Origin: Escherichia coli
Lineage (GTDB): Bacteria; Pseudomonadota; Gammaproteobacteria; Enterobacterales; Enterobacteriaceae
DNA: 64,000 bases
Assembly: GCF_003334765.1 (NCBI RefSeq)
Contig: NZ_QOWT01000008.1
Direction: 5' to 3' (one strand)
Positions 56,320 through 59,880 of this stretch are shown piece by piece (within the stretch, counting starts at the first letter, position 1; each line of letters starts with the position of its first letter). Under the pieces are notes generated by a model, which did not search any database, was not told the DNA's origin, and saw only the letters and a list, made by a program, of their open reading frames with translations. The translations under genes and the position numbers were made by a program.

Positions 56320-57270
56320 TTATAGTTTGGCGGCAAGAAGATCTTCCAGTTTGCGTTGATCAACGGCGAACAGACGAATGCCTTCAGACAGTTTTTCTAC
56401 CGCCATCGCATCCTGATTGTGCTCCCAACGGAACTCCGCTTCGCTCATGGGAGCTGGGCGTGGGAACGTCTGAGAAGGTGGGATTAATTTACGTACCACT
56501 GGCGAAACTTTTTCCTGCAGCTCCTTCAGTAAATTCGGTGCGATAGTCAGTCGATCGCAGCCGGTTAAGGCGAGGATTTGTTCGGTGCGACGGAAGCTCG
56601 CGCCCATCACAATGGTTTCATAGTGGTGTTGCTTATAGTAGTCGTAGATATTGCGCACCGATTTAACGCCCGGATCTTCTTCCACCACATACGGGTCCAT
56701 CGGCTTGCGTGCCTGATACCAGTCATAAATACGCCCGACAAACGGCGAAATCAGAAAAACGCCTGCTTCCGCACAGGCCCGTGCCTGTGCAAAAGAAAAC
56801 AGCAGCGTCAGGTTGCAGTTAATACCTTCTTTTTCCAGCTCTTCTGCCGCGCGAATTCCTTCCCAGGTCGAAGCCAGCTTGATCAGAATGCGTGATTTCT
56901 CAACGCCTTGTTGCTGATACAAGTCCACCAGATGGCGCGCCTTCTCAATACTCTTTTCTTTATCAAAAGAGAGGCGTGCATCAACTTCTGTTGACACGCG
57001 ACCGGGTACGATTTTGAGGATTTCAGCACCGAAATTGACCGCCAGTTTGTCACACGCTGCGACCACCTGTTGTTCCTGGGTCTTGCCATTTTTTTTACCC
57101 CAGGCGATAGCATCGTCTATTAAATGCTCATATTGTGATAATCCGGCAGCTTTGAGTAACAGCGAAGGATTGGTGGTGGCATCCTGGGGATGATAATGGC
57201 GAATGGACTCAATATCGCCGCTGTCTGCCACGACAGTGGTGAACTGTTTGATGCCGTCTAACTCGTTCAT
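56320..57270 (-). CDS. talA: Transaldolase A
   Basis: 316-aa [26 protein letters not shown]...; 19-nt gap to tktB indicates a talA-tktB operon. Confidence 0.95.
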
Positions 57271-57496
57271 AGGAAATACTCCTTGAAAAGTAAAGTGTTA
57301 GATGAGTGCGTTAATTCACACTTCTGAGAAATTTCGCTAAACGCATCAAAAAAGCATAGCAGACAGGCATGGTATTGCTGGATTAAGCAGGTAACATCAG
57401 TGTTATAGGATTATTACCAAAACATTATATTAATGGTGAGAGTTTGGACTTGCTCAAAGTCTGTAGACTCCGGCAGGGTAATAATGTGCGCCACGT

Positions 57497-57520
57497 TGTG
57501 GGCAGGGGCTGTTGCCCACA
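57497..57520 (+). other. Stem-loop in the maeB 5' leader
   Basis: TGTGGGCA-ggggctgt-TGCCCACA, 8-bp stem about 40 nt upstream of the maeB ATG. Confidence 0.35.
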
Positions 57521-57558
57521 CACTTTATTTGTGAACGTTACGTGAAAGGAACAACCAA

Positions 57559-59838
57559 ATGGATGACCAGTTAAAACAAAGTGCACTTGATTTCCATGAA
57601 TTTCCAGTTCCAGGGAAAATCCAGGTTTCTCCAACCAAGCCTCTGGCAACACAGCGCGATCTGGCGCTGGCCTACTCACCAGGCGTTGCCGCACCTTGTC
57701 TTGAAATCGAAAAAGACCCGTTAAAAGCCTACAAATATACCGCCCGCGGTAACCTGGTGGCGGTGATCTCTAACGGTACGGCGGTGCTGGGGTTAGGCAA
57801 CATTGGCGCGCTGGCAGGCAAACCGGTGATGGAAGGCAAGGGCGTTCTGTTTAAGAAATTCGCCGGGATTGATGTATTTGACATTGAAGTTGACGAACTC
57901 GACCCGGACAAATTTATTGAAGTTGTCGCCGCGCTCGAACCAACCTTCGGCGGCATCAACCTCGAAGACATTAAAGCGCCAGAATGTTTCTATATTGAAC
58001 AGAAACTGCGCGAGCGGATGAATATTCCGGTATTCCACGACGATCAGCACGGCACGGCAATTATCAGCACTGCCGCCATCCTCAACGGCTTGCGCGTGGT
58101 GGAGAAAAACATCTCCGACGTGCGGATGGTGGTTTCCGGCGCGGGTGCCGCAGCAATCGCCTGTATGAACCTGCTGGTAGCGCTGGGTCTGCAAAAACAT
58201 AACATCGTGGTTTGCGATTCAAAAGGCGTTATCTATCAGGGCCGTGAGCCAAACATGGCGGAAACCAAAGCCGCATATGCGGTGGTGGATGACGGCAAAC
58301 GTACCCTCGATGATGTGATTGAAGGCGCGGATATTTTCCTGGGCTGTTCCGGCCCGAAAGTGCTGACCCAGGAAATGGTGAAGAAAATGGCTCGTGCGCC
58401 AATGATCCTGGCGCTGGCGAACCCGGAACCGGAAATTCTGCCGCCGCTGGCGAAAGAAGTGCGTCCGGATGCCATCATTTGCACCGGTCGTTCTGACTAT
58501 CCGAACCAGGTGAACAACGTCCTGTGCTTCCCGTTCATCTTCCGTGGCGCGCTGGACGTTGGCGCAACCGCCATCAACGAAGAGATGAAACTGGCGGCGG
58601 TACGTGCGATTGCAGAACTCGCCCATGCGGAACAGAGCGAAGTGGTGGCTTCAGCGTATGGCGATCAGGATCTGAGCTTTGGTCCGGAATACATCATTCC
58701 AAAACCGTTTGATCCGCGCTTGATCGTTAAGATCGCTCCTGCGGTCGCTAAAGCCGCGATGGAGTCGGGCGTGGCGACTCGTCCGATTGCTGATTTCGAC
58801 GTCTACATCGACAAGCTGACTGAGTTCGTTTACAAAACCAACCTGTTTATGAAGCCGATTTTCTCCCAGGCTCGCAAAGCGCCGAAGCGCGTTGTTCTGC
58901 CGGAAGGGGAAGAGGCGCGCGTTCTGCATGCCACTCAGGAACTGGTAACGCTGGGACTGGCGAAACCGATCCTTATCGGTCGTCCGAACGTGATCGAAAT
59001 GCGCATTCAGAAACTGGGCTTGCAGATCAAAGCGGGCGTTGATTTTGAGATCGTCAATAACGAATCCGATCCGCGCTTTAAAGAGTACTGGACCGAATAC
59101 TTCCAGATCATGAAGCGTCGCGGCGTCACTCAGGAACAGGCGCAGCGGGCGCTGATCAGTAACCCGACAGTGATCGGCGCGATCATGGTTCAGCGTGGGG
59201 AAGCCGATGCAATGATTTGCGGTACGGTGGGTGATTATCATGAACATTTTAGCGTGGTGAAAAATGTCTTTGGTTATCGCGATGGCGTTCACACCGCAGG
59301 TGCCATGAACGCGCTGCTGCTGCCGAGTGGTAACACCTTTATTGCCGATACATATGTTAATGATGAACCGGATGCAGAAGAGCTGGCGGAGATCACCTTG
59401 ATGGCGGCAGAAACTGTCCGTCGTTTTGGTATTGAGCCGCGCGTTGCTTTGTTGTCGCACTCCAACTTTGGTTCTTCTGACTGCCCGTCGTCGAGCAAAA
59501 TGCGTCAGGCGCTGGAACTGGTCAGGGAACGTGCACCAGAACTGATGATTGATGGTGAAATGCACGGCGATGCAGCGCTGGTGGAAGCGATTCGCAACGA
59601 CCGTATGCCGGACAGCTCTTTGAAAGGTTCCGCCAATATTCTGGTGATGCCGAACATGGAAGCTGCCCGCATTAGTTACAACTTACTGCGTGTTTCCAGC
59701 TCGGAAGGTGTGACTGTCGGCCCGGTGCTGATGGGTGTGGCGAAACCGGTTCACGTGTTAACGCCGATCGCATCGGTGCGTCGTATCGTCAACATGGTGG
59801 CGCTGGCCGTGGTAGAAGCGCAAACCCAACCGCTGTAA
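57559..59838 (+). CDS. maeB: NADP-dependent malic enzyme (malic enzyme domain fused to PTA-like domain)
   Basis: 759-aa [26 protein letters not shown].... Confidence 0.95.
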
Positions 59839-59854: not shown

Positions 59855-59880
59855 GCTTACCCTGAATATTCAGGGTAAGC
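59855..59880. other. Perfect 26-bp palindrome GCTTACCCTGAAT|ATTCAGGGTAAGC after maeB
   Basis: Read directly from sequence 17 nt after the maeB stop; no downstream U-tract; lies at the distal edge of the eut upstream region. Confidence 0.5.

Follow-up and report, generated by a model that had tools for sequence, protein, structure and literature searches.

The stem-loop in the leader of maeB is, by a modest balance of the evidence, near-neutral: a structured spacer that represents a labile region in its E. coli form and has no dedicated regulatory role. It would be part of a G/C-rich, rapidly evolving spacer, flanked on one side by a conserved promoter-like block and on the other by a conserved core comprising the U-run, a block complementary to Spot 42 and the Shine-Dalgarno (SD)/CsrA site. 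We favor this reading because the folding energy of the hairpin is ordinary, Rfam provides no match, a stem-breaking allele is carried uncompensated in 558 genomes, relatives lack the hairpin, modelled ribosome-binding-site accessibility does not respond to it and no 3' end maps to it. Spot 42 and CsrA, through the SD-proximal core downstream of the hairpin, would be the more likely route of leader control of maeB. If the hairpin has any residual effect, it would probably be small: RNA polymerase might pause weakly or terminate leakily at CAC-UUUAUUU, or mRNA decay might be altered modestly.

The features considered are listed below by their positions in the window, which is the whole 64-kb stretch of DNA analyzed.

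57426 to 57441, + strand: distal maeB promoter, with the -10 element TATATT at 57426-57431 and the transcription start site (TSS) at G57438 (-121) or A57441 (-118); from published TSS maps.
57438 to 57485, + strand: promoter-like block, comprising GAGAGTTTGG (57438-57447), CTCAAAGTCTG (57453-57463) and the -10-like AATAAT (57480-57485); from alignment.
57476 to 57483, + strand: GGGUAAUA, which pairs with UGUUGCCC (57510-57517) instead of the hairpin forming; from the minimum free energy (MFE) and centroid structures of 57438-57535.
57485 to 57535, + strand: upstream open reading frame (uORF) of 16 codons, MCATLWAGAVAHTLYL then stop, running through the hairpin, its ATG overlapping the -10-like AATAATG; read from the window.
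57487 to 57504, + strand: UGC.CCAC-GUU-GUGG.GCA, an antiterminator-like hairpin that competes for the left arm of the stem-loop; from the MFE structure of the 51-nt context.
57497 to 57520, + strand: the stem-loop; from sequence and RNAfold.
57524 to 57530, + strand: U-run TTTATTT, with CAC (57521-57523) between the stem and the U-run; match of a lenient terminator scan.
57538 to 57546, + strand: UUACGUGAA, exact complement of Spot 42 nucleotides 44-52, adjoining the SD; from k-mer comparison with K-12 spf.
57546 to 57550, + strand: Shine-Dalgarno AAGGA, whose GGA is the main predicted CsrA site; read from the window and from the Leistra 2018 model.
57559 to 59838, + strand: maeB coding sequence, NADP-dependent malic enzyme, 759 aa; from the open reading frame list and RefSeq annotation.

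The sequence and coordinates of the stem-loop were exactly as the initial annotation had given them. Its arms, TGTGGGCA (57497-57504) and TGCCCACA (57513-57520), form a perfect 8-bp inverted repeat, as read from the window, around the loop GGGGCTGT (57505-57512). RNAfold added a G57505.U57512 pair, which extends the stem to 9 bp and reduces the loop to 6 nt, and gave a dG of -14.3 to -15.0 kcal/mol with five G-C pairs in the 8-9 bp stem. The distance of about 40 nt to the maeB ATG was also correct: the gap is 38 nt, with the ATG at 57559 and the hairpin at -62 to -39 relative to maeB. The hairpin was paired with a probability of 0.96 in the mature leader, against 0.43-0.66 in nascent RNA that ends at the U-run. 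The divergent genes talA (56320-57270, - strand) and maeB (+ strand) are separated by a 288-bp spacer. The + strand of the window corresponds to the K-12 minus strand, and the ATG at 57559 to NC_000913.3 position 2578377. Positions 57200-57650 were matched at 95% identity or more, with annotation as maeB / tal, in 5,425 of the 5,426 complete E. coli genomes.

A start site downstream of the hairpin would have taken it out of the message. Both published start sites lie upstream of it, so the hairpin is transcribed within the maeB leader. One map shows a single maeB TSS with 611 reads and a 121-nt 5' UTR, and the upstream sequence printed there ends at G57438 (Kim 2012; PMC3415461). The other places the TSS at -118 (A57441) with the sigma-70 -10 element ATTATATT (Mendoza-Vargas 2009; PMC2760140). 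With the -121 TSS as +1, the hairpin spans nucleotides +60 to +83; with the -118 TSS, the stem begins at +57.

The energy of the hairpin is ordinary for its base composition, and perfect 8-bp inverted repeats are common in the window. Forty-two overlapping repeats of this kind with loops of 3-10 nt (about 24 distinct) were counted in the 64 kb, against 11.3 +/- 3.3 overlapping repeats in Markov-1 random sequence. Shuffling was applied to the hairpin's own 38-nt segment, from the -10-like element to the U-run. The best hairpin abutting the U-run had an energy of -14.3 kcal/mol compared with -12.6 +/- 3.2 kcal/mol in dinucleotide shuffles (z = -0.52, p = 0.31); the shuffles fold nearly as well because the local segment is G-rich and then C-rich. 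Larger contexts gave z values of -0.72 (51 nt), -1.0 (98 nt) and +0.23 (140 nt), and the sole context standing out was a 44-nt RNA starting at a hypothetical proximal promoter (z = -2.2). An Rfam scan of 57100-57800 at permissive E-values returned unrelated families only, with a best E of 5.2 or worse. The segment is single-copy, with a median of one place per genome in 5,425 genomes, and a REP/BIME-type repeat, which would be present in many copies, was rejected on that count.

Variation within E. coli fell largely on two alleles. The 60 nt from 57486 to 57545 were identical in 4,249 of the 5,426 complete genomes (78%), and most of the changes in the 1,177 genomes with at least one change were G57502A or C57523A. 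G57502A converts the central G57502-C57515 pair to an A.C mismatch and was uncompensated in both carriers aligned (C25 and Jnd12). It was found in 558 of the 5,426 genomes (about 10%), among them the type strain ATCC 11775 and Nissle 1917. With this allele the best fold changed from -15.0 to -9.1 kcal/mol and to a different structure, and the stem probability was 0.02 or less. C57523A, present in 561 of the 5,426 genomes, lies between the stem and the U-run and lengthens the A/U-rich tract. In RMDEC465, the most divergent strain, C57516U keeps G.U pairing and the loop is altered.

Orthologous leaders were gathered by a genome scan with the MaeB N-terminus (among the matches listed), by a metagenome DNA-pattern scan and by TalA-guided look-ups; the metagenome pattern was anchored outside the hairpin, and 39 of the loci listed were true maeB leaders. 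E. fergusonii, the closest species sampled, has neither the hairpin nor the U-run (z = +2.1). Two Enterobacter-like metagenome contigs, L125 and L184, lack the whole hairpin/U-run segment; in these, the SD core is kept and comes almost directly after the -10-like GATACT, the order being GATACT, ATCTGACCGATACGTAAAAGGAA, ATG. In Salmonella, C. koseri, C. amalonaticus and C. sedlakii, T5-6 follows GC-rich hairpins that differ from that of E. coli, and the geometry of hairpin and T-run is canonical in the last two species. Leaders of Enterobacter, Leclercia and Klebsiella-like bacteria have a weak GGGUG...CACCC helix, the loop of which usually contains CAGGA. No convincing equivalent hairpin was found in C. 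werkmanii, Citrobacter FP75, Enterobacter Ag1, Cedecea, Buttiauxella or Pectobacteriaceae.

The 5-bp GGGUG/CACCC helix was all that RNAalifold recovered from the 14 alignable leaders; its energy was -4.5 kcal/mol and its covariation term -0.04. One compensatory pair (U-A to C-G) was detected in the leader L199, and lineage-specific extensions of the helix exist. A T-run recurs at the position of the E. coli U-run in many genera, and a GC-rich hairpin with differing arms precedes a T-run at the same position in Salmonella, C. koseri, C. amalonaticus, Leclercia, Enterobacter and Mangrovibacter. When the best hairpin abutting the U-run was compared with shuffles in 16 leaders, z ranged from -1.83 to +0.64. 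The mean of -0.6 is nominally below zero (t-test p = 0.02), with the 16 lineages being related and not independent. These comparisons point to at most a weak tendency toward some hairpin before the U-run across genera, and the E. coli hairpin itself is lineage-specific and most likely dispensable.

Two other motifs were seen in the orthologous leaders. CAGGA(U) occurs in the GGGUG/CACCC loop, about 35-45 nt before the SD GGA, in L089, L092, L095, L108, L142, L176, L189, L199, L203 and the Enterobacter leaders. A layout with two GGA sites is typical of CsrA targets, and the CAGGA loop together with the SD GGA resembles it. The CAGGA loop motif has been lost in E. coli. The second motif, GTGCGGCGCAC, is a 5-1-5 palindrome directly 3' of the -10-like GATAAT in L208-L214 (Salmonella and Citrobacter), and reads GTGCGACGCAC in C. 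amalonaticus. This palindrome lies at the predicted start site, where it would be unable to form an RNA hairpin; it may have a role at the DNA level or may be due to chance.

A doubtful but better-surviving alternative is that the hairpin and UUUAUUU act as a leaky intrinsic terminator, or attenuator, which stops some transcripts before maeB. The U-run 3' of the hairpin, and with it the look of a weak terminator, had been missed in the initial annotation. CAC and UUUAUUUGUG come next after the stem, and a simple scan calls the + strand terminator-like. Hairpin, CAC and UUUAUUU look like a weak terminator. The U-run is interrupted and lies 3 nt off the stem, where an intrinsic terminator would have about 7-9 uninterrupted U beginning within 0-2 nt. 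A score of the d'Aubenton-Carafa (1990) type was -45 for the stem as given and rose to about 0 only with a bulged G-C/U-A extension that reaches the U-run. On the minus strand a terminator was rejected, the reverse-complement hairpin being without a T-run and no gene reading into it. Beyond the gene, GCTTACCCTGAATATTCAGGGTAAGC at 59855-59880 forms a perfect 10-bp hairpin 17 nt past the maeB stop with a weak T-run, AGTTTAG, and is the probable maeB terminator as judged from its sequence.

An attenuator in this leader has been predicted before, and the hairpin is covered by that computational prediction. For maeB, Table S6 of Mendoza-Vargas 2009 (PMC2760140) lists a 'Transcriptional' attenuator taken from the predictions of Merino and Yanofsky 2005, and the entry, also carried in RegulonDB, is purely computational. 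This listing and the terminator-like scan match both argue for attenuation. The listed anti-anti-terminator (U00096.2 2576456-2576533) corresponds to 57425-57502 of the window and overlaps the left arm of the hairpin. It begins upstream of both mapped TSSs and is therefore not fully transcribed from them, which argues against the prediction as listed. The Term-seq tables of Adams 2021 (PMC7815308), which cover three growth conditions, contain no maeB 3' end or Rho region and no coordinate 2578xxx, another point against attenuation. The nearest 3'-end entries in these tables are at K-12 positions 2560305 and 2581778, and the missing 3' end could be due to weak expression of maeB under those three conditions.

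Under this doubtful explanation, competing pairings would set how much transcription reads through, perhaps influenced by uORF translation or a bound factor. Mutually exclusive structures were found in the nascent RNA in silico, with probabilities of 0.29-0.54 for the alternatives against 0.43-0.66 for the hairpin. For the competing hairpin at 57487-57504, the probability was 0.30-0.54 in nascent RNA but about 0 once the leader was mature. When each was forced, the 57476-83:57510-17 pairing and the hairpin had ensemble energies of -33.8 and -33.6 kcal/mol, respectively. Near-isoenergetic alternatives of this kind (0.29-0.53 compared with 0.43-0.66 for the hairpin) count in favor of attenuation, as does the start of the uORF at 57485, beside the competing hairpin. 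AGGG lies 6 nt before the uORF ATG. Against a role for the uORF, orthologous uORFs range from 4 to more than 19 codons, end at different stops, vary in sequence and contain no regulatory codon run. Because of this range in length, the uORF peptide is probably not functional; a conserved leader peptide was rejected because length and sequence vary and because its overlap with the -10-like motif accounts for the ATG. A literature search on the 57485-57535 uORF found nothing. A sensor for the attenuator was likewise sought, and neither a conserved leader peptide, an Rfam aptamer match nor a literature report was found. The recurrence of a hairpin and T-run in other genera, canonical in C. amalonaticus and C. 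sedlakii, is in favor of attenuation, but the E. coli stem is broken in 10% of strains and missing in E. fergusonii, L125 and L184, and the covariation term of -0.04 gives no sign of a maintained stem.

A 5'-proximal, protective stem-loop of the ompA type is improbable. According to this explanation, the hairpin would shield the mRNA from 5'-end-dependent RNase E if a promoter with AATAAT (57480-85) were active. The promoter-like block to which this element belongs is common to Enterobacteriaceae and Pectobacteriaceae, with ATAxT invariant and TTCAAAGTTT nearly invariant (alignment A1), and is kept in the natural deletion variants L125 and L184. The distal -10 TATATT (57426-31) of E. coli is not conserved in other genera, and the mapped E. 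coli TSS (-121/-118) lies at the 5' edge of the conserved block. This distribution, which speaks for the protective stem-loop, suggests that a proximal maeB promoter is ancestral and the distal one younger. The 57438-57485 block would, if active as a promoter, start transcription about 4-6 nt 5' of the hairpin, and the hairpin dominates RNA beginning at 57492 (P = 0.97; z = -2.2). However, neither E. coli map (Kim 2012; Mendoza-Vargas 2009) contains a proximal TSS for this block, and a sigma-70 consensus scan detected no promoter in the talA-maeB spacer. In Salmonella and Citrobacter the left arm comes directly after the -10 element, so that transcription from such a start would miss part of the arm. 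The polymorphism and loss of the stem count against protection as well.

The talA-maeB spacer contains a further conserved motif. A near-palindrome or direct repeat, GTTATAGGATTATTAC, lies at 57402-57417, about 150 nt upstream of the maeB ATG, and reads GTTATAAGTTGATAAC in other genera. Preservation of this motif is better outside E. coli, and a transcription factor might bind there to act on talA, maeB or both. Inspection by eye for a CRP site gave TGTGG-N14-CCACA, which was rejected since the spacing is wrong.

The initial annotation had proposed that the hairpin could modulate translation or stability of the malic enzyme mRNA, and for translation the modelling did not bear this out. The stem ends 24 nt before the SD and is not conserved. 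The cost of opening -15 to +6 in the distal transcript was 5.8 kcal/mol for the wild type, 5.0 for G57502A, 4.5 for a stem-destroyed version and 5.6 for a hairpin deletion; in the hypothetical proximal transcript, the corresponding values were 4.6, 4.8, 4.9 and 4.1 kcal/mol. The mean probability of being unpaired for -15 to +6 was 0.58-0.62 over all four versions, and energy differences by partition function were 1.3 kcal/mol or less. In these models the hairpin does not occlude the ribosome-binding site, and the near-constant opening cost without the hairpin leaves translational modulation without thermodynamic support.

The SD-proximal part of the leader, 3' of the hairpin, is probably the regulatory one, judging from its conservation. 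The 9-nt UUACGUGAA lies 18 nt 3' of the stem, and leader and spf share no other exact complementarity of at least 7 nt. It lies within CGxUACGUGAAAGGAA, a nearly invariant stretch; no other part of the leader is as well conserved across Enterobacteriaceae. In most leaders and genera, about 11 nt separate the Spot 42-complementary block from the AUG. The Spot 42 duplex energy in a region-restricted analysis was not significant against shuffles (p = 0.14). The gene maeB has been reported as a Spot 42 target (PMC8534726; Arrieta-Ortiz et al.). The top modelled CsrA site is at -13, and a maeB 5'UTR-GFP reporter is repressed by CsrA (Leistra 2018; PMC6028588); that paper also names maeB a functional CsrA target, citing Sowa 2017. 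The UUACGUGAA/SD block fits both the published Spot 42 targeting of maeB and the CsrA repression of its leader.

The hairpin might be an accessory of this core, in that it would keep the U-rich linker, the Spot 42 site and the SD single-stranded or would present the U-run to Hfq; we regard this as quite improbable. The reported Spot 42 targeting, the CsrA repression in the reporter, the position of the Spot 42 complement 18 nt beyond the stem, and the CsrA-type motif CAGGA between the arms in other genera are all in keeping with such a role. In contrast, the E. coli loop has no GGA, the modelled accessibility of the core is independent of the hairpin, and the core is conserved in the hairpin-less E. 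fergusonii, L125 and L184.

A very improbable combination of these ideas is a switch between two isoforms, in which transcripts from the E. coli-specific distal promoter could adopt an antiterminated fold and the hairpin and U-run would serve as a conditional terminator, formed or not according to uORF translation or to whether CsrA or Spot 42 occupies the adjacent core. If true, this would be an uncharacterised attenuator that ties malic-enzyme expression to carbon status.

A DNA operator, with the 8-N8-8 palindrome bound by a dimeric transcription factor as a roadblock downstream of the TSS, is scarcely credible: the perfect 8-bp inverted repeat does lie within a divergent regulatory region, but one half-site is mutated in 10% of strains (G57502A), the palindrome is absent in E. 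fergusonii and its sequence unconserved in any other genus, a literature search found no regulator bound at 57497-57520, and half-sites spaced 16 bp from center to center face opposite sides of the helix, unlike those of typical HTH dimers.

The preferred reading of the hairpin as a structured spacer has points against it as well. These are the recurring hairpin and T-run, the mean z of -0.6, the compensatory pair in L199, the G.U pair kept in RMDEC465 and the 78% identity among E. coli genomes. The hairpin is nonetheless probably near-neutral, with weak pausing or termination as its most plausible residual activity. NADP-malic enzyme is a node between the TCA cycle and gluconeogenesis and is induced on acetate. 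A functional hairpin, if true, would add an extra transcriptional or RNA-stability layer to its control. The computational 'attenuator' annotation that maeB has long carried should not be treated as an established fact. The SD-proximal core (the Spot 42 complement and the CsrA/SD site) and the promoter-like block upstream of the hairpin are better targets for further work.

The leader can be compared with several known systems. It shares with the predicted maeB attenuator the same transcript, a terminator-like hairpin with a U-run and competing upstream pairings, the listed element overlapping the left arm; it differs in that no in vivo 3' end is seen, the U-run geometry is poor, no leader peptide is conserved and the stem is often lost. 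Like Rho-independent terminators and attenuators (trp, his, and pyrBI), it has a GC-rich stem of 8-9 bp, a short loop and a U-rich tract, and, as in those leaders, the hairpin competes with an antiterminator-like pairing and is preceded or overlapped by a short ORF. Unlike trp, his, and pyrBI, the maeB leader has a 3-nt CAC spacer, an interrupted U-run, an unconserved uORF without regulatory codons and no evidence of termination. With the ompA 5' stem-loop it has in common a stable 5' UTR hairpin well upstream of the SD, whereas the mapped 5' end of maeB is 59 nt upstream of the stem, which would be 5'-terminal only from an unproven proximal promoter. The E. coli maeB loop, GGGGCUGU, is unlike a glgC-type CsrA hairpin in having no GGA. 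The leader nevertheless resembles CsrA-bound leader hairpins such as that of glgC in being repressed by CsrA in the reporter, in having GGA at the SD, and in the CAGGA found between the arms in orthologues.
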